In this document: positions 1-38,720 of the stretch, piece after piece
Layout: the number at the start of each line of letters is the position of its first letter
Numbering within the stretch: position 1 is the stretch's first letter
From: a virus
Length of the DNA: 38,720 nucleotides
Direction: 5' to 3' (one strand)
Virus record (IMG/VR): IMGVR_UViG_3300021963_000007
Notes under the pieces: model-generated
What the model saw: only the letters and a program-made list of their open reading frames with translations
What the model was told of the DNA's origin: nothing
Databases searched by the model: none
Program-made: the position numbers and the translations under genes

Positions 1-127
1 GTTCGGTGTCGGTGGCGCGTGACTGACGTGACGCATTGTTCCGGAAACTTTTCTCGGCGTGTGACGCAAATGACGCATTGTTCCGGAAACTTTTCCCGGG
101 ATGATGCGCCGTTTTCGGCCGTGTGTG
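1..127. repeat. Terminal direct repeat, left copy, identical to 38594..38720. It marks circular closure or terminal redundancy of a 38,593-bp unit
   Basis: Base-for-base comparison gives 127/127 identity with 38594-38720. The last CDS (stop 38613-38615) therefore also ends at 20-22. Confidence 0.95.
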
Positions 128-142
128 ACGCAAATGACGCAT
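29..142 (+). repeat. Two longer direct repeats that carry the iterons: a 25-mer at 29-53 and 71-95, and a 20-mer at 59-78 and 123-142
   Basis: The 25-mer is TGACGCATTGTTCCGGAAACTTTTC and the 20-mer is GTGTGACGCAAATGACGCAT. Both pairs are exact copies, read directly. Confidence 0.9.
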
Positions 143-143
143 C

Positions 144-172
144 TGTGACTCATTATTTTGTGATGAGTCACA
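144..172. repeat. Inverted repeat TGTGACTCAT-N9-ATGAGTCACA in an AT-rich stretch
   Basis: The 10-bp arms at 144-153 and 163-172 are perfect reverse complements. Confidence 0.85.
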
Positions 173-240
173 CTTAAGTGGTTGAATGCAATGAGAAATA
201 AACGCCTGTGACTGAAATGACGCATTTTTAGACAAGTTTG

Positions 241-280
241 GTGTGTACGCGCGCGCGCCCGCGCTCGCGCGCATGTGTGG
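241..280. repeat. Alternating purine/pyrimidine GC-rich tract (GTGTGTACGCGCGCGCGCCCGCGCTCGCGCGCATGTGTGG) between the two opposed iteron arrays
   Basis: Read directly. The composition contrasts with the AT-rich flanks. Confidence 0.7.
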
Positions 281-323
281 AGCGGTTTAATGTCGGAAAT
301 ATGCGTCATTTGCGTCACAGAGG

Positions 324-329
324 GATAAT
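324..329 (+). promoter_or_regulatory. Possible -10 hexamer GATAAT upstream of terS. The expected -35 position is occupied by TGCGTCA repeats
   Basis: GATAAT lies at 324-329 and no good -35 hexamer sits 16-18 nt upstream. The repeats at 302-317 overlap that position, so an activator-dependent promoter is only a guess. Confidence 0.25.
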
Positions 330-415
330 TAGCCGATGAATCAAGAAGATAGGTGTGACGGACTGGCCGAAATATGCGTCACAGATGCGTCACATGCGTC
401 ACAGAGGAGGGTTTT

Positions 416-937
416 ATGGCTGGACGGCTGAAAACGCGGGTCGGGTTGGTTACGCTGGCCCACAAACGCGATGAGGTGAGGGAGTTGCTTGAGGCTGGTA
501 CTCCGCTGCCCGATGTGGCCAAGCAAATGGACGTGCCATATCAGGCGCTGACCAAGTGGCTTGATCAGACTGAGCAAGCGGGGCTATACGCGCGAGCTAG
601 GGAAAAGGCGGCGGACCTGCTTGCCACTGAGACGCTGGCCATAGCGGATGACGTGCTGGGTGAGGTGGCGCGCGACCGGCTGCGCGTGGACGCGCGGCGC
701 TGGCTCGCCGGCCGCTGGGACCCGACCCGCTTCGCGGACCGGGCCGGCGTTGCCGTGCAGGTCAACCTCGGCGACCTGCACCTGACCGCTGTCAAGGCCA
801 GCGCGGAGGCCCTGACGCACGAGCCTGACAGGCCCGTGTACGAGCCTGACACCGAAGGCCTGACAAGCCCGGCGCCTGAGCCTGACGCGGTCCCTGAGCC
901 GCGGCGCCGACGCGCCCCGAAGGCGCCCCGCGCCTGA
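416..937 (+). CDS. terS: Terminase small subunit (HTH type), 173 aa
   Basis: Frame of track ORF 374..937. The ATG at 416 lies 5 nt after GAGGAGG (404-410). The product has an N-terminal HTH-like segment. It also carries the YARAREKAADLLA...RDRLRVDARRWLAGRWDPTRFADR signature that I recognise from HTH-type small terminases. Confidence 0.7.
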   Translation: MAGRLKTRVGLVTLAHKRDEVRELLEAGTPLPDVAKQMDVPYQALTKWLDQTEQAGLYARAREKAADLLATETLAIADDVLGEVARDRLRVDARRWLAGRWDPTRFADRAGVAVQVNLGDLHLTAVKASAEALTHEPDRPVYEPDTEGLTSPAPEPDAVPEPRRRRAPKAPRA

Positions 938-3463: not shown

Positions 3464-3733
3464 ATGAGCAAGCCCGACCTGATTCGCCAGACTTTGCTGG
3501 ACCACTTCATTGAGACCGGAAAGCCGCTGCTGATCAGCGAGCTGGTAACGATGTGCAAGGCCAGCCGCCAGACCGTCAAAGACGCCATCTGGGACCGCTC
3601 CTACGACTTCGACTTTTGCGACATTGAGGTGTGGAGCGGCAGCAGTTGGAATGGCCGCTACCGCGTTTGCCAAGGCGCGCAGCCGTCCCGCCGGTATCTT
3701 GCCAGCATTATCAAAGCCGCCCGCGGCGCCTAA
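3464..3733 (+). CDS. Putative winged-helix DNA-binding protein (89 aa)
   Basis: Track ORF with the motif at 3450-3460. The N-terminal segment IRQTLLDHFIETGKPLLISELVTMCKASRQTVKDAIWD looks like an HTH. Confidence 0.6.
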   Translation: MSKPDLIRQTLLDHFIETGKPLLISELVTMCKASRQTVKDAIWDRSYDFDFCDIEVWSGSSWNGRYRVCQGAQPSRRYLASIIKAARGA

Positions 3734-3747
3734 CCGAGGACCCGACC

Positions 3748-4419
3748 ATGAGCACCTACGGCTACATCCGCGTCAGCACCGCCGAGCAGGCGGACGGCAC
3801 CAGCCTCGACGAGCAGCGCCGCCAGATTGCCGGCAACGCGATGGCGCACGGCCTCGACGTTACCCAGTGGGTCGAAGACGCTGGCGTCTCCGGCTCGCTG
3901 CCGTTCGTTGACCGTCTGGCCGCGCACGGTGTCGAGCCGGTCCGCGGCGACACCATCATCGTCGCGAAGCTGGACCGCTTCAGCCGTGACCTGCGCGACG
4001 CGCTGAACACGGTCCACGGCTTCAAACAGGCCGGCGTGCGCCTGATCGTGAACGGCCACGGCGACGTGACCGACGACAGCAACATCTACGCCCGCCTGAT
4101 GCTCGAAATCCTGTGCGCCTTTGCCGGCCATGAGCGCCGGGTCATCAAGGACCGTCAGAAGACCGGCCAGCGCAACAAGCGCGCGCAGGGCGGCCACATC
4201 GGCGGCAGCGCCCCGTTTGGCTACCGCACCATCGGCCACGGCCGCAGCGCGACGCTGGAGGCCATCCCGGAGCAGCAGGCGGCCATCGCCACCATGCTGG
4301 CCCTGCGCGCCACTGGCGCGAGCCTGCGGGCCATCAGCGCGGCTGTGGAGGCCCAGCACGGCCTCAAGGCCAGCCATGAGGCCGTGCGCCGCGTCCTGCG
4401 CGAGGCAGGCGCCTTGTAG
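3748..4419 (+). CDS. Small serine recombinase (resolvase/invertase family, 223 aa)
   Basis: In-frame ATG 3748 of track ORF 3631..4419, with the motif at 3734-3744. It has the N-terminal YGYIRVSTAEQ catalytic-serine signature, KLDRFSRD, and a C-terminal HTH-like segment (GASLRAISAAV). Confidence 0.85.
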   Translation: MSTYGYIRVSTAEQADGTSLDEQRRQIAGNAMAHGLDVTQWVEDAGVSGSLPFVDRLAAHGVEPVRGDTIIVAKLDRFSRDLRDALNTVHGFKQAGVRLIVNGHGDVTDDSNIYARLMLEILCAFAGHERRVIKDRQKTGQRNKRAQGGHIGGSAPFGYRTIGHGRSATLEAIPEQQAAIATMLALRATGASLRAISAAVEAQHGLKASHEAVRRVLREAGAL

Positions 4420-4468: not shown

Positions 4469-5878
4469 ATGTCCATGCCCAACCCGTTTGTCACGTTCCT
4501 GCTCACCTACCGTAACGACCCGGTGGCGTTCGTTGTCGACGTGCTCGGCGTCGAGCCCGACGACTGGCAGAAGGACTTCCTGCGCGCGGTGGCGGCCGGG
4601 CATCGCCGGGTCAGCATCCGGTCCGGTCACGGTGTGGGCAAATCAACCGGCGCAAGCTGGGCCATGCTCTGGTATCTGCTGACTCGCTACCCGGTCAAGA
4701 TCGTGGTGACGGCGCCCACCAGCAGCCAGCTTTACGACGCCCTGTTCGCCGAGGTGAAGCGCTGGGTCAAAGCGCTGCCCCCCGCGCTGGCTGACCTGCT
4801 CGACCCGAAGCAGGAGCGCATCGAACTCAAGAGCAGCCCCACCGAGGCCTTCATCAGCGCGCGCACAAGCCGCGCAGAGCAGCCAGAGGCCTTGCAGGGC
4901 ATTCACAGCGACAACGTGATGCTGATCGCCGACGAGGCCTCTGGCGTGCCCGAGCAGGTGTTCGAGGCCGCGGCCGGGTCGATGTCCGGGCATGCGGCCA
5001 CCACCATCCTGCTGGGCAACCCGGTGCGCAGCTCTGGGTTCTTCTACGACACCCACCACCGGTTGTCGTCGGAGTGGTGGACGCGCCGGGTGTCCTGCGC
5101 CGACAGCCCCCGCGTGAGCCCGGCCTATCTGGCCGAAATGCAGAGCCGCTACGGCGAGGAGTCGAACGCATACCGGGTCCGCGTGCTGGGCGAGTTCCCG
5201 CGCAGCGACGACGACACCATCATCCCGATGGAGCTGCTGGAAGCCGCCATCCATCGCGATGTAGCGCGCAGCGACGTGGCGCAGACCGTCTGGGGGCTGG
5301 ACGTGGCGCGGTTCGGCAGCGACTCCAGCGCGCTCTGTAAGCGCGCAGGGAACGCTGTGCTGGAGCCTGTGCGCCGCTGGCGGGGTCTGGACCTGATGCA
5401 GCTCACGGGCGCCGTGGTGGCCGAGTATGAGGCCCTGTCGCATGAGGAGCGGCCGGTCGAGATACTGGTCGATTCCATCGGGCTTGGCGCCGGGGTCGTG
5501 GACCGGCTGCGCGAACTCAACTTGCCGGCGCGCGGGATCAACGTCAGCGAGTCCCCGGCGATGGGCGGGACCTACCGCAACCTGCGCGCCGAGCTCTGGT
5601 ACAAGGCCAAGGCGTGGTTCGAGAAACGCGACTGCAAGCTGCCGAAGGACGAGCAGCTCGTGTCGGAGCTGGCCACCGTGCGTTACAAGTTCAGCAGCAA
5701 CGGTAAGACGCAGGTGGAAGGCAAGGACGAGATCCGGCGCCGCGGTCTGGCGTCGCCCGACCTTGCCGATGCGTTTGTGCTCACGTTCGCCTCTGATGCC
5801 GCTACGGTGACCTACGGGGCGTCGTACAACTCCCCGTGGTCGAAGCCTATCCGCCGGGCCATCCCGCGTCTTGCGTAA
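4469..5878 (+). CDS. terL: Terminase large subunit (469 aa)
   Basis: Track ORF. It has the Walker-A-like SGHGVGKST, the ATPase stretch VMLIADEASGV, and a C-terminal nuclease-like region. Its position upstream of the portal gene also fits. Confidence 0.85.
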   Translation: MSMPNPFVTFLLTYRNDPVAFVVDVLGVEPDDWQKDFLRAVAAGHRRVSIRSGHGVGKSTGASWAMLWYLLTRYPVKIVVTAPTSSQLYDALFAEVKRWVKALPPALADLLDPKQERIELKSSPTEAFISARTSRAEQPEALQGIHSDNVMLIADEASGVPEQVFEAAAGSMSGHAATTILLGNPVRSSGFFYDTHHRLSSEWWTRRVSCADSPRVSPAYLAEMQSRYGEESNAYRVRVLGEFPRSDDDTIIPMELLEAAIHRDVARSDVAQTVWGLDVARFGSDSSALCKRAGNAVLEPVRRWRGLDLMQLTGAVVAEYEALSHEERPVEILVDSIGLGAGVVDRLRELNLPARGINVSESPAMGGTYRNLRAELWYKAKAWFEKRDCKLPKDEQLVSELATVRYKFSSNGKTQVEGKDEIRRRGLASPDLADAFVLTFASDAATVTYGASYNSPWSKPIRRAIPRLA

Positions 5879-9312: not shown

Positions 9313-10287
9313 ATGAGCAGCACGCCAGAGAGCACTGCGGATGTTAACAGCGGCAGCCTACAAGCCGCAGAAGCCGCTTTCGAGAGTTTATTGGCCGGCG
9401 AACAGCCGGAGACCCAAGAGGCTTCCGAAAGCACGCAGGCGCCGGATTATTCCGACGCCGGTTACGACGCGCCGGAAGACGTGTCGGAGCCGCTCCGCGA
9501 TGATGATGAATCGGAGGCAGAGCAAGACCCGGTGCCGGTCTACACCATTAAGGTTAATGGTCAAGAGATCGAGGTCCCGCTTAATGAGCTGATCAACGGT
9601 TATTCAAGGACCGCGGACTACACCCGTAAGACCCAAGAGCTCGCCGAGGCACGCAAAGCAGCGCTCGCCGAGTTCGATCAGGTCCGGACGGAGCGCGCAC
9701 AATACGCGCACCTGCTCAACGCACTACAGCAGCAGGTCGAGGCCAACACGCCCGCGGAACCCGACTGGGACCGGCTTCGCGCCGACGACCCCATCGAGTA
9801 CAGCGTGCAGTGGGCTGAAAAACAGCGGCGGCAGCAGCGGCTCTACGCAATCCAGCAGGAGCAGGGCCGATTGGCCGAGATCGCTCAGTTCGAGCAGGCT
9901 CAGCACAACCAGTCGGTCCTGATGCAGGAGCGCGATGCGTTGCTGACCGTAGTCCCCGAGTGGAAAAACCCGGAGACCGCGAAACAGGAACGCGACGCAC
10001 TGCTGACCTATGGGCAGCAGAACGGGTTCCATGCCGATGAGCTGAAGAGTCTGGTGGACCACCGCTCTGTGGCCATCTTGCGCAAAGCCATGCTGTTCGA
10101 CCAACTGCAAAACCGAGCCGGACAGGTGAAGCCGGTGCAGCGCCAAGCTGCGCCCGTGCTGCGCCCCGGGGCGGCGAATACCGTGCCGAAGTCGGTGAGC
10201 GATTTGACGCGCGCGAAACAGCGTCTTGCAAAAACTGGGAGCGTCCGCGATGCCGCGAGCGCTTTTGAAGCTCTACTTTCGAGGTAA
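9313..10287 (+). CDS. Scaffolding protein candidate (324 aa)
   Basis: Track ORF with a GGAG Shine-Dalgarno sequence. It has an acidic N-terminus and long E/Q/R-rich helical segments, and sits immediately upstream of the major capsid gene. Confidence 0.6.
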   Translation: MSSTPESTADVNSGSLQAAEAAFESLLAGEQPETQEASESTQAPDYSDAGYDAPEDVSEPLRDDDESEAEQDPVPVYTIKVNGQEIEVPLNELINGYSRTADYTRKTQELAEARKAALAEFDQVRTERAQYAHLLNALQQQVEANTPAEPDWDRLRADDPIEYSVQWAEKQRRQQRLYAIQQEQGRLAEIAQFEQAQHNQSVLMQERDALLTVVPEWKNPETAKQERDALLTYGQQNGFHADELKSLVDHRSVAILRKAMLFDQLQNRAGQVKPVQRQAAPVLRPGAANTVPKSVSDLTRAKQRLAKTGSVRDAASAFEALLSR

Positions 10288-14662: not shown

Positions 14663-14700
14663 CTTTCGAGAAATCTTTCAAGGTGCTTGAAGCCAGATAA
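14659..14700 (+). pseudogene. Remnant of an endolysin 5' end (MTFEKSFKVLEAR-stop)
   Basis: 14659-14688 matches the start of the intact endolysin (16841-16870) at 28 of 30 nt, including the ATGA junction. Homology ends after GTGCTT, and a stop follows at 14698-14700. Confidence 0.8.
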
Positions 14701-15509
14701 TGTTTTCCATCGCGCCATTTTCCGTAGCACCGTTTTCGTCGATTAGAATCGACAATCAGCTTGCGGCAAACGTTTCCGCCGTTGCGTCTGCTGCCGGCGA
14801 CTTGTCCACGTCCATTCAGCTTGCGGCGAACGTTTCCGCCGTTGCGTCTGCTGCCGGCGACTTGTCCACGTCCATTCAGCTTGCGGCGAACGTTTCCGCC
14901 GTTGCGTCTGCTGCCGGCGACTTGTCTACGTCCATCCAACTTGCGGCAGACGTTTTCGCCGTTGCGTCTGTTGCCGGCGACTTATCCACGTCCATCCAAC
15001 TTGCGGCAGACGCCTCCGCCGTTGCGTCTGTTGCCGGCGACTTATCCACGTCCATCCAACTTGCGGCAGACGCCTCCGCCGTTGCGTCCGCTGCCGGCGA
15101 CTTGTTTACGTTCAAGCCGATTGCGGCAGACGTTTATGCTGTTGCGTCAGCAAGTGCCACCTTAGTTTCCGCCGTATTGATAGACGGCAGCGCGCTGATT
15201 GTAGCTAGTGCTATCGCGCAGCTTGCCGAGGTTAGCGGGCCGGTAGACATTGCGGGCCCGGCAACTGTGTCGGGAAGCGCTATAGTTTTAATCGGCAGTG
15301 GTGAGTGTTCAGTTTACGCCGGAAGCGTTGCCACTATCCAATGGCTTCCCGTAATTGATACCGGCGAATCATGGGGCCCGATTGCAACGTCTGCGGCGAC
15401 TTGGACCCCCCAGACCGCGCCAATTGATCCGTGGACCGCGCAGGCGACCCCGGCCGAGACGTGGACCGCGCAAACAGTACCACCGGGCGGCTGGTCCGCC
15501 GCCGCATAA
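14700..15509 (+). CDS. Repeat-containing fibre-region protein (269 aa) with 20-aa tandem repeats and a Trp-periodic C-terminus
   Basis: Track ORF. The unit LAANVSAVASAAGDLSTSIQ recurs about 6.5 times. The C-terminus is WGPIATSAATWTPQTAPIDPWTAQATPAETWTAQTVPPGGW. Confidence 0.7.
   Translation: MFSIAPFSVAPFSSIRIDNQLAANVSAVASAAGDLSTSIQLAANVSAVASAAGDLSTSIQLAANVSAVASAAGDLSTSIQLAADVFAVASVAGDLSTSIQLAADASAVASVAGDLSTSIQLAADASAVASAAGDLFTFKPIAADVYAVASASATLVSAVLIDGSALIVASAIAQLAEVSGPVDIAGPATVSGSAIVLIGSGECSVYAGSVATIQWLPVIDTGESWGPIATSAATWTPQTAPIDPWTAQATPAETWTAQTVPPGGWSAAA
14757..15150 (+). repeat. 60-bp tandem repeat, about 6.5 copies, in frame
   Basis: Units are phased exactly with the 60-nt sequence lines 14761, 14821, 14881, 14941, 15001, 15061 and 15121. 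Copies 1-2 differ at 1 nt, and later copies diverge progressively. Confidence 0.95.
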
Positions 15510-32272: not shown

Positions 32273-32752
32273 ATGCCAGCACATCACAAACGCAGCGAGA
32301 CCGGAGTGGCCGCTGCGAATCCGCACAGCGGGCCCAGAGGCGGCGACGCCAGCTATCGGGCCTACTTCCAGACCGCCGAGCAATTCCAAGCCGCGATGAC
32401 CTTGGCCGCCCGACTTGAGGCCAAGGGCATGCCCCGCCGCGCGTGGCGGGTCCGGCTGAATCTTGATGGCCAGCAGCCGGTGTATTGCGCGCCGAAGGAC
32501 GACGAGGAAGACGATGCCGAGGACGAGAATGGCACCGCGCAACGCCCCGTCCGCACAATGTCTCTCGAGCTACTGCTGGAAGCGCAGGCCGAAATCAAGA
32601 AGCTGATAAAAAAGAGCCAACTATCTCACCGAAAACTTTCGGCTGAGCTCGGCGTTTCGCAGCAAACAGTCTCAAGTTGGAACAAAGGCGGATACATCGG
32701 CAAAGACTCGTTTGAAAAACTCAAAAAGTTCGTGGAGAGCATGAAGAAATGA
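32273..32752 (+). CDS. Two-part protein (159 aa): GC-rich N-terminal half, acidic linker, lower-GC C-terminal XRE-type HTH
   Basis: Track ORF. The variant motif CCGAGGACACG (32259-32269) sits 3 nt before the ATG. The C-terminal SQLSHRKLSAELGVSQQTVSSWNKGG is a canonical HTH. Confidence 0.65.
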   Translation: MPAHHKRSETGVAAANPHSGPRGGDASYRAYFQTAEQFQAAMTLAARLEAKGMPRRAWRVRLNLDGQQPVYCAPKDDEEDDAEDENGTAQRPVRTMSLELLLEAQAEIKKLIKKSQLSHRKLSAELGVSQQTVSSWNKGGYIGKDSFEKLKKFVESMKK

Positions 32753-34092: not shown

Positions 34093-34277
34093 ACCGCGAC
34101 GTCTGCGGCCAATGCGACGCGCCGGTTGAGTTGTGCCGGTGCGCCGCGCTGGTCGCTGCCGCCGAGCGCAAGGAGAGGGAGCGTTGCGCAAAAATCTGCG
34201 AGCAGCTACAGGACTGGCCCGAGGGCGCAACGCCATATGACTGCGCCAAAGCGATCCGCGCGGGGCGGCCGGTATGA
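34089..34277 (+). CDS. Mini-protein, ERE-CA family member d (62 aa)
   Basis: Track ORF with an ATGA overlap. It contains LVAAAERKERERCAKICE and ends CAKAIRAGRPV. Confidence 0.65.
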   Translation: MNRDVCGQCDAPVELCRCAALVAAAERKERERCAKICEQLQDWPEGATPYDCAKAIRAGRPV

Positions 34278-36217
34278 TCAGCATCGACTTCGAGACCCGG
34301 AGCTGTAGCGACCTGCGCGCGGTCGGCGTGTACCGCTACACCGAAGACCCTACTACCGATGTCTGGTGTATGGCCTACCGGCTGCCCTTCGATGATGAGG
34401 TTCGCGAGTGGCGCCCCGGCATCAGCGGCTGGGACGTGGAGCTGCTGTCGTTAATCGCGCAGGGCGTGCCAATGCGAGCGTGGAACGCCGGGTTCGAGCG
34501 GCGCATCTGGGACCGGATTATGGTCCCGCGCTATCGATTCCCGGCCATCCCGCGCGAGCAGTGGTACTGCACGGCCGCGGATGCGCGAGCGATGGCGCTG
34601 CCCAACAAACTCGGCGACGCTGCTAAGGTGCTGGGCGTCTTGGACCAGAAGGACGGCAGCGGCCAGCGGCTGATGTTGCAAATGTGCCGGCCGCGGTTGA
34701 TAGCCGACAGCGGCCCGGTCTGGTGGCATCAGCGGGAAAAAGTCAGCGCGCTAGTCGAGTACTGCAAACAGGACGTGCGCACCGAGAGCGCTTGCGCGCA
34801 GGTCATCCCGGAGCTGCCGCCGCTGAGCCGCGAGGTGTACCTGCTCGACCAGACGATCAACGACCGCGGTATCCTGCTGGACCGTGAGCTCGCGCAAGCC
34901 GCGCAAAAGATGGCCGAGCAGGCTACCGACCTCGCCGACGCCGCGATGCGTCAGGCAACAAACAACGCGGTCAGCGCGGTCACCAGCGCGGCGCAGCTCA
35001 CCGCGTGGCTGCGCGAGAGCGGGCTAGAGACTCCGGGCGTCGACAAACTTAACGTCAGCCGCATGCTGGAGCTGCCAGACCTGCTGCCAGAGCAGGAGAC
35101 AGCGCTGCGCCTGCGCGAGGAGTTTGGCCGGTCGTCGGTGGCCAAGGTCAACACGATGCTGGAGTGCGTCTGCGAGGACGGGCGCCTGCGGGGCCTGATG
35201 ATGTTCCACGGCGCCTCCACCGGGCGCTGGTCTGGCCAGCTCGTGCAGCCGCAGAACTTCCCGCGCGGTGCAGTCAACAAGCCCGAGCGTTTTATCCCCG
35301 ACGTGCTAGCCGGAGACATCGACGGCATCGACGTTCACTATCCGGTGCTGGAGGTGCTGTCGTCGATGCTGCGGCCGATGATGATGGCCGCGCCGGGGCA
35401 TCTGCTGGTGGCTGCGGACTACGCTGCCATCGAGGCCCGGGTGCTGGCGTGGCTGGCCGGGGAGGATGCGCTCTTGCAGACGTTTGCGGATGGTGGCGAC
35501 GTGTATCGGGAGATGGGTTCCCGCATCTACGCCAAGCCGGCGGACCGCATCACAAAGGGCGAACGGCAGCTTGCCAAGATGGCCGTGCTGGGCCTTGGGT
35601 ATGGCATGGGCCACGTCAAGTTTCGCGATTCCTGCGGCGCCCAGAACGTCGACATCGATGCAGAAGAGGCCAAGCGTGTCGTGGATGTGTATCGAGGCTC
35701 GAACACGGCAATCACGCGGCTCTGGAAGCAGATGGAGCAGGCTTGTGTCGCGGCGATGGAAAGCCCGGGCGCGGTGTACCGCGTCGGAGACAAGGTCCGG
35801 TTTCAGTTCCGGGACCGATTCCTGCGCATGGAGCTGCCGTCCGGGCGCGCGCTGGCCTACGCCAAACCGGCGCTGGTGGACCGCGCCACCCCGTGGGGCT
35901 CGACCCAGCCGGCGGTGCGCGTCTGGGGCGTCAATTCGGTAACTCGGCAGTGGGCCCCGCGCGATCTGTACAGTGGGCTGCTGGTCGAAAACGCGGTGCA
36001 GGCCATCGCGGCGGATCTGCTTTGGCATGCAATGCTGACGACAGAAAAGGCCGGCATGCCGGTCGTGCTGTCGGTACACGACGAAATTGTTTGCGAGGTC
36101 CCAGAAGAACAGGCATCAGTGCCGGCTCTGGAAGATGCGATGTGTGATGCGCCATTATGGGCATCCGGGCTGCCGCTGGCGGCCGAGGGTTGGAAAGGGC
36201 AACGATACAGAAAGTGA
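34274..36217 (+). CDS. Family A DNA polymerase with a 3'-5' exonuclease domain (647 aa)
   Basis: Track ORF. Exo I is ISIDFETRS, motif A is DYAAIEARVLAWLAGE, motif B is RQLAKMAVLGLGYGMG, and motif C is VLSVHDEIVCEV. Confidence 0.9.
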   Translation: MISIDFETRSCSDLRAVGVYRYTEDPTTDVWCMAYRLPFDDEVREWRPGISGWDVELLSLIAQGVPMRAWNAGFERRIWDRIMVPRYRFPAIPREQWYCTAADARAMALPNKLGDAAKVLGVLDQKDGSGQRLMLQMCRPRLIADSGPVWWHQREKVSALVEYCKQDVRTESACAQVIPELPPLSREVYLLDQTINDRGILLDRELAQAAQKMAEQATDLADAAMRQATNNAVSAVTSAAQLTAWLRESGLETPGVDKLNVSRMLELPDLLPEQETALRLREEFGRSSVAKVNTMLECVCEDGRLRGLMMFHGASTGRWSGQLVQPQNFPRGAVNKPERFIPDVLAGDIDGIDVHYPVLEVLSSMLRPMMMAAPGHLLVAADYAAIEARVLAWLAGEDALLQTFADGGDVYREMGSRIYAKPADRITKGERQLAKMAVLGLGYGMGHVKFRDSCGAQNVDIDAEEAKRVVDVYRGSNTAITRLWKQMEQACVAAMESPGAVYRVGDKVRFQFRDRFLRMELPSGRALAYAKPALVDRATPWGSTQPAVRVWGVNSVTRQWAPRDLYSGLLVENAVQAIAADLLWHAMLTTEKAGMPVVLSVHDEIVCEVPEEQASVPALEDAMCDAPLWASGLPLAAEGWKGQRYRK

Positions 36218-36224
36218 GGGGAAC

Positions 36225-38615
36225 GTGAGAGCAGAACAACTATTTTCGGCGGGGTTTACGGACCTCGTCAGCGTGGCGCCTCCGGGCGCCGCGTTGTCTC
36301 CGGCTAGCAATATCAAGCCGGATGCGCTGGGCAAGGCGCCAGCGCGATTGGGTGGCGCGGGGTGGGCCGGGTACGACTGGCGCCGCGCCGAGGTGCGTCT
36401 GTCCGATGCGCAGACGATGGACCGCACCGGGGCCAGCATCGGCCTGCGGGCGCGGACCTATCCGGCGCTCGACATCGATGTGCTGGACGAGGACCTCGCC
36501 GCGGTCGTCGAGCGGCTCGCGTTGGAGATACTGGGGCCGGCGCCCTGTCGGATCGGACGCGCCCCCAAGCGGCTGCTGGCCTACCGCTGCTCGACACCGT
36601 TCGGCCGGATGCGGCTGTGGCTGACTGAGGATAGCGGCAAGCGGCATCTGGTCGAGATGCTGGCCGATGGGCAGCAGTACGTCATCGCGGGCACACACGC
36701 CACCACAGGCCGCCCCTACGAGTGGGACGCGGACTTGTGCGAGCTGAGCCCAATGGGCCTGCGCGAGGTCGACCGGGACAAGGTGCAGGCATTCTTTGCC
36801 GCGCTTGAGTCCGAGGTGGATTTTCTGGGGCTCAAGGTCGAGCGAGAGGGCACGGGTGCGGTGGCGATGGCTGGGGATGCGCCTGCGCAGGACTCACTGC
36901 GCGCGCCGTCTCTGGACCTGCTGGCGAGCGCTGTGGCGGCCATGCCCAACGATGCCGCCAACTACGAGGAGTACATCGCGGTGGGCATCGCCATCAAGGC
37001 CGCGGGCGCGGCCGATGAGGGCGCCGCGTTGCAGGTCTATCAGGCATGGGCCGCGCGCTGGCCTGATGGAGACAATGACCCACAAAACGTGGCCCGGGAC
37101 TGGGCGCGCATGCGTTCGCCATACCGGATCGGATGGCAATGGGTGGCGGACCGCGCCGCGCGCTATGGCTGGAACGCGGCCGGGTGGGAGTTCCCGGTGG
37201 AGCCGATTGCGGACGAGGTCGAGAGCCGGGGCACGGTGGAGTACACCGACGCGGCGATGGCGGCGCGGATGGTGCTGGCGCACTCACACGAGGCCAAGCA
37301 CTGCGCCGCGCTGGGCGGCTGGCTGGTCTGGGACGGCTCGCGCTGGGCGCCGGACGAGACGCTGCTGGTGGCGGACTGGGCCGGGGCGCTGCTGCAAGAG
37401 GCCGCGCGCGAGGTGCTGGCCCGGGGCGACTACAAGGCCGAGCGCGCGACAAAGGTGGCCGAGCGGCTGTCGAGCGTGAGCTCGCGCAACAACTGCGAGG
37501 CCTATGCCCGAGCGGACCGCCGGGTGAATGTGCGGGCTGAGCAATTCGACGCGGACCCGATGCTGCTGAACACACCCGGCGGCATCGTGGACCTGCGCAC
37601 CGGGGTGCTGCGCGACCGACACCGGGGCGAGCTGGTGATGCGGGTGGCGGGCGCGGTGCCTGACCGCAAGACGCGGCCGGTGGCGTGGCTGGAGTTCCTG
37701 CGCTGGGCCACGGGCGAGGACGATGCGCTGCTGGGCTACCTGCGGCGGCTGATTGGGTACTGCCTGACCGGGCAGACGCACGAGCAGCACCTGTCGTTCC
37801 TGTTCGGCCCGGGCGGCACTGGCAAGTCGGTTTTTGCGGGGCTGGTGGCGTCGCTGCTGGGGGACTACGCGGTCAAGTCGCAGATGGAGACGTTTGTGGC
37901 TAGCACCGTGGACCGGCACCCGACTGAGCTGGCGCGGTTGCGCGGCGCGCGGTTGGTGTGGGCTAGCGAGACGCAGGACGGCCGGCGATGGGCCGAGGGT
38001 CGCGTCAAGGAATTGACGGGCGGCGAGCCGGTCACCGCGCGGTTCCTGCACCGCGACGAGTTCACCTATGTGCCGCAGTTCAAGCTGGTGTTTTTGGGCA
38101 ACCATCGCCCGGCCATTCGCAACGTCGAGAGCGGCATCAGGCGTCGGCTGCATGTGGTGCCGTTCATCCGGCCGCCTGCTGTGGTCGACCAGACGCTGCC
38201 AGAGCGGCTTAGGGCCGAGCTGCCGGCCATCATGGGCTGGGCGGTCGAGGCGTGCCTAGAGTGGCAGCGCGATGGTCTCCGGCCGCCGCAGGCGGTGCTC
38301 GACGCGACCGACGATTACTGCGAGGAGGAGGACGTGTTCGGGCGTTGGATCGACGACTGCTGCACGGCGGGGCCGGCAGAGTTCGCGACCATTCCCGAGC
38401 TGTTCGAGAGCTGGCGCGGCTGGGCGGTCGAGCAGGGCGAGTACGTTGGGAGCGCCAAGCGGTTGTCGGCCGCGCTCAAGCAGAGGGGATTGCAGGCCGT
38501 GCGGACGCGGGATGCGCGGGCGTTTGCGGGTCTGGCGGTGCGGCTGGGGCCGGGACAACTGGGCCGGGCGGCCGGTGTCGTGGTGCGTGGTGAGTTCGGT
38601 GTCGGTGGCGCGTGA
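36225..38615 (+). CDS. Primase-polymerase (AEP) fused to a P4/D5-type SF3 helicase (796 aa)
   Basis: In-frame GTG 36225 of track ORF 36087..38615, with GAGGGG 5 nt upstream, just after the polymerase stop. AEP motifs are ALDIDVLD and IAGTHATTGRPYEW. There is a central primase C-terminal-like region. Walker A is GPGGTGKS, and KLVFLGNHRP and RRRLHVVPF are typical of the P4-family primase C-terminal domain. Confidence 0.85.
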   Translation: MRAEQLFSAGFTDLVSVAPPGAALSPASNIKPDALGKAPARLGGAGWAGYDWRRAEVRLSDAQTMDRTGASIGLRARTYPALDIDVLDEDLAAVVERLALEILGPAPCRIGRAPKRLLAYRCSTPFGRMRLWLTEDSGKRHLVEMLADGQQYVIAGTHATTGRPYEWDADLCELSPMGLREVDRDKVQAFFAALESEVDFLGLKVEREGTGAVAMAGDAPAQDSLRAPSLDLLASAVAAMPNDAANYEEYIAVGIAIKAAGAADEGAALQVYQAWAARWPDGDNDPQNVARDWARMRSPYRIGWQWVADRAARYGWNAAGWEFPVEPIADEVESRGTVEYTDAAMAARMVLAHSHEAKHCAALGGWLVWDGSRWAPDETLLVADWAGALLQEAAREVLARGDYKAERATKVAERLSSVSSRNNCEAYARADRRVNVRAEQFDADPMLLNTPGGIVDLRTGVLRDRHRGELVMRVAGAVPDRKTRPVAWLEFLRWATGEDDALLGYLRRLIGYCLTGQTHEQHLSFLFGPGGTGKSVFAGLVASLLGDYAVKSQMETFVASTVDRHPTELARLRGARLVWASETQDGRRWAEGRVKELTGGEPVTARFLHRDEFTYVPQFKLVFLGNHRPAIRNVESGIRRRLHVVPFIRPPAVVDQTLPERLRAELPAIMGWAVEACLEWQRDGLRPPQAVLDATDDYCEEEDVFGRWIDDCCTAGPAEFATIPELFESWRGWAVEQGEYVGSAKRLSAALKQRGLQAVRTRDARAFAGLAVRLGPGQLGRAAGVVVRGEFGVGGA

Positions 38616-38720
38616 CTGACGTGACGCATTGTTCCGGAAACTTTTCTCGGCGTGTGACGCAAATGACGCATTGTTCCGGAAACTTTTCCCGGGATGATGC
38701 GCCGTTTTCGGCCGTGTGTG
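38594..38720. repeat. Terminal direct repeat, right copy, identical to 1..127
   Basis: 127/127 identity with the window start, read directly. Confidence 0.95.

Follow-up and report, generated by a model that had tools for sequence, protein, structure and literature searches.

The closest described systems are the origins of the SaPIs (Staphylococcus aureus pathogenicity islands), whose Rep proteins are both self-loading helicases and initiators (PMC9371898). The C-terminal winged helix of the SaPI Rep recognises iterons of 5–6 nt, and 6–12 of these iterons follow directly on the rep reading frame. They are divided by an AT-rich region near the centre, and each side contains two or more iterons, those of one side being oriented opposite to those of the other (PMC9371898). 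Two hexamers are thought to load, one per side (PMC9371898).

The window analysed here was a stretch of viral DNA of 38,720 nucleotides (IMG/VR record IMGVR_UViG_3300021963_000007). Its region ~19–403, located between a primase-helicase gene and the small terminase gene (terS), is very probably, as judged from sequence comparison, a phage replication origin of the ‘self-loading helicase’ type, that is, of the Rep/PriRep (SaPI-like) type. The origin most likely belongs to this already known kind, of which it would be an ordinary though well-formed member.

In the alpha protein of satellite phage P4, a primase, a helicase of the SF3 type, and an origin-binding winged-helix domain at the C terminus are combined in one polypeptide, which recognises short octamer repeats in ori and crr, several kb apart. 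In this domain plan, P4 alpha is similar to the window helicase, whereas the P4 sites are divided between two regions. SV40 large T antigen and papillomavirus E1 form two oppositely oriented SF3 hexamers on inverted short repeats with easily melted flanks. In these eukaryotic viruses, the origin-binding domain is located on the N-terminal side of the helicase, and the repeats of 5–6 nt are arranged in a compact palindrome of ~64 bp.

Organization of the helicase–terS junction

Bases 1–127 of the window were identical to bases 38594–38720. This exact terminal overlap of 127 bp is a circularisation overlap of the kind that assembly with k=127 typically leaves on circular contigs; it is neither a biological terminal repeat nor a genome end. 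The phage genome was assembled as a circle, with a true length of 38,593 bp after the overlap was removed. An independent contig of 6.3 kb from another metagenome (L001), which was 99% identical, was continuous through the helicase gene, the array, and terS. The junction is thus genuine and does not mark a genome end. The few differences between L001 and the window within the gap were all located outside the repeat cores.

The stop codon of the helicase gene, TGA, was located at 20–22 (= 38613–38615), and a non-coding gap of 393 bp (23–415) separated it from the ATG of terS at 416. The ribosome-binding site of terS, GAGGAGG, was located at 404–410. The helicase was a fusion protein, in which a Prim-Pol primase was followed by PriCT_2, D5_N, an SF3-type helicase (DUF5906), and a domain at the C terminus (~residues 735–842). 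TerS carried an N-terminal helix-turn-helix; its gene is a neighbour of the origin and no part of it. The gap closed a complete replication module encoding RuvC-like, SNF2, PD-(D/E)XK, Enc34-type SSB, HTH, PolA (34274–36217), and Prim-Pol-helicase proteins.

When the DNA was searched for similarity against known phages, only distant terL/portal matches were obtained (phiM5 and two spring-water contigs), and the gap sequence itself had no match. The genome of phiM5 (L139, MF074189) contained terminal repeats of 357 bp upstream of terL and had no array adjoining its helicase gene. The terminal repeats of this distant relative say little about the ends of the window genome. Six ATTGCGC copies were present in the non-coding DNA of phiM5 (43215–43515), just before the right 357-bp terminal repeat. 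MW202879 (L141) contained a different helicase, annotated as repA, and no array, and it is likewise uninformative on the ends of the window genome.

Two tandem repeats were observed elsewhere in the window, both within open reading frames. A 60-bp unit was tandemly repeated ~6.5 times (14757–15148; 91% matches) in the reading frame 14700–15509 (269 aa), where it corresponded to a 20-residue protein repeat; this reading frame had no Pfam match. About 5.8 perfect tandem copies of CGACGAGGA (2632–2683) in the reading frame 2354–2689 encoded an acidic tail rich in Asp/Glu.

Repeat copies and double sites

The gap contained 11 exact and five degenerate copies of the repeat TGACGCA. The six exact copies on the + strand began at 29, 62, 71, 126, 135, and 218 (together 29–224), and the five on the − strand at 302, 311, 375, 386, and 395 (together 302–401). 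The degenerate copies were TGACTGA at 21 and 208, TGACTCA at 146 with its reverse complement at 164, and TGACGGA at 356. The spacings of 9 and 11 bp were exact, as were the direct repeats of 25 nt at 29/71 and 20 nt at 59/123, and every coordinate, motif count, spacing, and direct repeat given in the preliminary description was borne out on recheck.

TGACGCA occurred 22 times in the whole window, as compared with 7.5 ± 2.8 times in shuffled sequences, and 22 copies were reached by none of 100 shuffles. Three of the 22 copies were duplicates within the terminal overlap, and the eight copies outside the gap were at chance level. The chance figure of about five in the preliminary description was slightly low, and its point that the word is enriched stands.

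The working unit of the array was a double site, TGTGACGCA-AATGACGCA-T, in which two half-sites of 9 bp were joined. Four double sites faced right, and one double site and one triple site faced left (Table 1). The triple site stopped ~4 nt short of the ribosome-binding site of terS. The repeats contained no Dam (GATC) sites and, as judged by eye, did not match the consensus sites of CRP, DnaA, CtrA, or IHF. An Rfam scan gave nothing above the threshold.

Table 1. Features of the helicase–terS junction, with positions in the window
Feature	Position	Strand	Remarks
Prim-Pol/D5-type helicase (initiator gene)	36087..38615, start provisional	+	Pfam and PHROG matches
42-bp direct repeats, each a double site plus TTGTTCCGGAAACTTTTC	14–55 / 56–97	+	86% identity
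Left-array double site 1, GTGACTGAC GTGACGCAT	19..37	+	first half degenerate, overlaps helicase stop codon
Left-array double site 2, GTGTGACGCAAATGACGCAT	59..78	+	9-bp register
Left-array double site 3	123..142	+	sequence identical to double site 2
AT-rich stretch	141..240		35–40% GC, as compared with ~65% GC in the genome
Perfect palindrome, TGTGACTCAT-N9-ATGAGTCACA	144..172		inside the AT-rich stretch
Left-array double site 4, CTGTGACTGAAATGACGCAT	206..225	+	first half degenerate
Alternating purine/pyrimidine GC tract	241..280		77% GC; repeat orientation flips here
Right-array double site, ATGCGTCATTTGCGTCACA (+ strand reading)	301..319	−	
Lone degenerate copy, GTGTGACGGA	353..362	+	
Right-array triple site, three ATGCGTCAC(A) copies	374..403	−	11- and 9-bp spacing
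Sf6-type small terminase (terS)	416..937	+	Pfam PF20901 at 1.1e-17, PHROG 1482

The junction agreed with the described SaPI origin layout in almost every point. The SaPI initiator combines primase and helicase in one protein, with a winged-helix domain at its C terminus, and it is homologous to the window helicase family. The repeats began right after the stop codon of the initiator gene, and the first copy in the window overlapped or abutted this codon. The iterons formed two sets facing each other, with at least two opposed iterons per side, and an AT-rich stretch was located inside the putative origin. However, the window is a full phage with a Gram-negative-like, GC-rich host, and not a satellite. 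Its repeat core was 7–9 nt long and mostly arranged in double sites of 9-bp register, whereas the SaPI repeats are of 5–6 nt. The AT-rich stretch was off-centre, inside the left half, and the repeat orientation switched instead at the alternating purine/pyrimidine (Pu/Py) GC tract. In addition, the putative origin of the window abutted the packaging module.

Conservation of the array at the helicase stop codon

In the helicase-anchored comparison, the window helicase was aligned with two relatives, which yielded 40 viral loci, and the 35 non-redundant loci were counted. These loci were scanned blindly for locally repeated 7-mers on both strands, and an array was defined as a cluster of at least five copies of a 7-mer between −150 and +500 of the helicase stop. 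The strongest cluster of the whole ~8-kb locus began, in most cases, at the helicase stop codon or a few bases past it. An array at the helicase stop was present in 24 of the 35 loci (helicases 27–52% identical), as compared with ~1.7 of 35 expected by chance. This expectation was based on the background of 18 clusters in 241 kb elsewhere, corresponding to 0.049 per 650 bp. About a third of the helicase relatives had no detectable array at the stop.

The layout was common across lineages and consisted of double sites in a short register, grouped in opposed sets that enclosed an AT-rich stretch or a Pu/Py tract. The repeat words varied by lineage. They were GGACAC variants in L024–L034, GGGGACAGG in L035, TACCGGT in L004/L037, CCTCTAC in L038, CCTTCCA in L041 and L046, CCTCCCA(A) in L044–L054, GTGACGTG in L023, GTGACGGCA in L056, and GTGACGCA, with a TGACGCA core, in L050; GACGGCA was also among them. 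An architecture that is kept while the repeat word changes is as expected for a co-evolving protein and its site. This supports the earlier proposal that the repeats are bound by a protein with sequence specificity, which would be encoded by the phage.

The helicase open reading frame ran through the array in L004 and L038. At 5361–5466 of L004 (= 4861–4966 of L037), perfect inverted double sites, GTTACCGGTGATACCGGTAA and TTACCGGTATCACCGGTAAC, were arranged around an AT-rich island of 66 bp, and this element was located wholly within the part by which the helicase open reading frame is extended at its 3′ end.

Across the family, the array went with the 3′ end of the helicase gene, which favours the origin reading over the terminase-site and operator readings.

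terS-anchored comparison and alternative readings

The terminase-site reading, which had been raised in the preliminary description, regards the array as a pac site, in which TerS would bind both arrays and TerL would cut between them, as in P1 pac or SPP1 pacL/pacR. The junction was similar to these sites in that clusters of short repeats were located on either side of a core, near the terminase genes. The array also ended just before the ribosome-binding site of terS, and the N-terminal helix-turn-helix of TerS is consistent with this reading. Furthermore, arrays between helicase and terS were also present in L006 and L080, which contain a DUF3987 helicase.

In the terS-anchored comparison, an alignment of four Sf6-type TerS proteins was used, which yielded 80 loci, 73 of them with at least 450 bp of upstream sequence. 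Most of these 73 loci had no upstream array and no helicase homologue detected within 4 kb. Clear arrays upstream of terS occurred where a helicase homologue ended (L065, L080, L088, L101, and L102), apart from two further cases, L066 and L079, with upstream sequences too short for a judgement. In L120, L121, L109, and L129, the helicase stop and terS were separated by 849, 1035, 1059, and 1771 bp, respectively (0.85–1.8 kb), and the array was located at the helicase stop, not at terS, in all four loci. The genes past the arrays in the helicase-anchored loci encoded SNF2 helicase, antiterminators, Neck1, HNH nuclease, tail-like proteins, and unknowns, and none of the 20 typed downstream genes was recognisable as a small terminase. 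In characterised Sf6/P22-type systems, pac is located inside terS, which also counts against the pac reading.

The exception was L003, the closest diverged relative, with a helicase and TerS that were 50 and 46% identical, respectively. In L003, small genes followed the helicase gene without a gap, and the repeat/Pu-Py array was located 3.3 kb further downstream, directly upstream of terS. This array consisted, in order, of GAAGGATTAGAAGGATTA, a Pu/Py tract of 30 nt, and ATCCTTC copies. Within this sub-clade, the position beside terS is thus conserved at least as well as the position beside the helicase. Therefore, adjacency alone does not separate the origin and terminase readings in the sub-clade, and the verdict rests on the wider family.

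In the wider family, the array tracked the helicase gene and not terS, and the repeats, in a further difference from P1 and SPP1 pac, were without Dam sites. The preliminary description had likened the locus to both P1-type pac sites and iteron origins. Since the array is tied to the helicase and not to Sf6-type terS, the former comparison is unsupported and the latter is supported. The pac reading is improbable, although L003 lends it some weight.

A second alternative is an operator set for the terS/late transcript, with a repressor or an activator on the repeats; such control could stand by itself or be a further role of the helicase bound at the origin. The right array was located just upstream of the first late gene, the GATAAT hexamer that had been put forward as a promoter element was present at 324–329, and an HTH_3 protein was encoded at 32273–32752. 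However, no sigma-70-like promoter was found in 1–1000 by a scan for sigma-70 consensus promoters, nor was a terminator found in this region, and the hexamers upstream of GATAAT (301–306 and 310–315) matched poorly or were wrongly spaced. No extra or clustered copies of the repeat were present in other intergenic regions, including the divergent region at 26.5–28.7 kb, and the architecture followed the helicase genes whatever gene was next. An operator set is thus quite improbable, although helicase binding could have a secondary effect on read-through into terS.

A res/dimer-resolution site for the serine recombinase (3631–4419), or a plasmid-type partition centromere, is highly improbable: a resolvase-family gene is located between terS and terL and repeat arrays are typical of partition sites too, but the array and the recombinase gene were 3.2 kb apart, the typed proteins included no ParA/ParB, and the partner of the array across the family was the helicase gene. 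The small serine recombinase contained a Resolvase domain (3.6e-30) and may act in dimer resolution, inversion, or integration, and a resolvase gene was likewise located next to terS in MW202879.

AT-rich stretch, palindrome, and Pu/Py tract

Two elements between or within the arrays may be involved in the opening of the putative origin. The AT-rich stretch is a candidate DNA-unwinding element. The inverted repeat inside it, noted in the preliminary description, was confirmed as a perfect palindrome and was formed by an inverted pair of one-mismatch repeat variants (TGTGACTCAT). Its hairpin energy was −8.6 kcal/mol (z = −4.65).

The Pu/Py tract had been described as 40 bp long. The alternating GC tract was present, but it was not unbroken and was composed of two alternating runs (241–258 and 266–279) with a short break. 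Pu/Py tracts of at least 12 nt were located within 450 bp past the helicase stop in 24 of the 35 helicase-anchored loci, as well as in L006, and their density there was 9 times that in the rest of the same loci. The tract was usually located at the symmetry point of the opposed repeats, as in the window, L003, L041, L047, and L056. It was also present in L006 and L080, beside an unrelated DnaG-zinc-finger/DUF3987 helicase. When the gap was aligned with the equivalent gaps of L003, L006, and L080, no conserved block was found except the Pu/Py tract. As single-stranded DNA, the tract folded no better than shuffled sequence.

The SaPI origin has been described without mention of an alternating Pu/Py tract (PMC9371898), and no paper on such a tract together with iterons and origins was found by full-text search. 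The tract, which is often (CG)n-rich, might tentatively be regarded as a conserved functional core of the origins of this helicase family, although we consider this rather doubtful. It could be a Z-DNA- or cruciform-prone switch, a primase start site, or a spacer, and could replace, or share the role of, the classical AT-rich unwinding element. It is the only detail of this origin family that is possibly new.

Alternating tracts of the (CG)n type were also observed ~90–160 nt into the Sf6-type terS genes of L065, L076, L088, L101, L109, L121, and L129. As judged by eye, these tracts coincided with conserved Ala-Arg-Ala-Arg codons, and they are therefore a coding by-product, unrelated to the origin tract. 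In MW202879, a protein of 134 aa encoded at 166–570, near the terS/resolvase cluster, was annotated by the depositors as a ‘Z-DNA-binding protein’, which is curious given the Z-DNA-prone tracts of the related origins.

Homology of the helicase and predicted recognition of the repeats

A profile of the helicase family was built from 21 members and compared with solved structures. The profile matched ASFV C962R with an E-value of 2e-30, poxvirus D5 with an E-value of 1e-13, and SaPI5 PriRep5 (PDB code 7OLA, the structure reported in PMC9371898) with an E-value of 1.1e-22. The alignment with PriRep5 covered profile positions 81–445 of 452 and spanned the ATPase domain, followed by the C-terminal domain. 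By these matches, the window helicase is a predicted initiator of the D5/SF3 type that carries a winged-helix domain at its C terminus and shares homology with SaPI Rep/PriRep. A single-sequence structure model of the C-terminal half of the helicase had a pLDDT of 38 and was unusable.

The similarity of the repeat words was compared with the identity of the C-terminal domains across 25 loci, with the ATPase core controlled. The partial r was 0.38, a value reached in 0 of 2000 permutations, in a partial Mantel covariation test that is inflated by shared ancestry. The reverse partial correlation, for the ATPase core, gave an r of −0.14 (p 0.98). There were counter-examples among individual loci: the window and L050 had a common TGACGCA core, yet their C-terminal domains were only 16% identical, and the window and L003 had similar C-terminal helices, while their repeats were different. 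The covariation lends indirect support to a role of the C-terminal domain in reading the repeats.

Three very different helicases had TGACGCA as their repeat word: the window helicase, that of L050 (29% identical), and that of L017, which is of the VapE type. Such reuse, a minor lead besides the Pu/Py core, would mean that origin modules have been exchanged or that the words have converged. In L050 (IMGVR_UViG_3300031364_000069), nine GTGACGCA copies were arranged around a very AT-rich centre at 5089–5389, after the helicase gene. When viral contigs were searched for relatives of the array with exact 17-mers, 13 single matches were obtained, which was about the number expected by chance, and a real array was found in L017 only. 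This miniature array of L017 (IMGVR_UViG_3300047160_014252), at 9538–9631, was composed of ATGACGCAAATGACGCAT, ~50 bp of AT-rich DNA, and three TGCGTCA copies, and it overlapped the stop codon of the VapE/DUF5906 helicase gene. L017 is an unrelated phage fragment, and the window and L017 had no protein in common at the BLAST level.

Proposed mechanism of the probable origin

The architecture of the array, its conservation at the 3′ end of the helicase genes, and the homology to PriRep5, both of the helicase and of its C-terminal domain, were all seen directly in the sequences. From these, we infer the protein that binds, the place where melting starts, and a possibly bidirectional course of replication. 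The Prim-Pol/D5-type helicase would recognise the TGTGACGCA repeats through its C-terminal winged-helix domain. It would find four double sites in the left array, facing one double site and one triple site in the right array. Since the arrays are opposed, helicase rings would assemble in opposite orientations on the two sides. The DNA between the arrays would then open, either in the AT-rich stretch with its palindrome or in the Pu/Py tract. Synthesis may be primed by the helicase itself, through its Prim-Pol domain, and the PolA encoded by the phage may extend the primers.

The sign of the GC skew changed near 800–900, with a polarity opposite to that of a bidirectional origin. This is weak evidence against an origin because phage GC skew is dominated by transcription.

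Implications for the phage and its helicase family

The analysis places a probable origin in the genome of an uncultured, GC-rich, podovirus-like phage of ~38.6 kb. It also provides a search rule, in which an opposed repeat array is sought directly past the stop codon of D5/PriRep-type primase-helicase genes. The recurring Pu/Py tract offers a modest lead on how such origins open. The distribution of the arrays suggests that the ‘self-loading helicase’ origin layout of the SaPIs is widespread among phages of GC-rich bacteria. The repeat words differ across lineages and appear to co-vary with the C-terminal domain of the helicase, and the family may thus provide natural pairs of protein and site for studies of winged-helix specificity.
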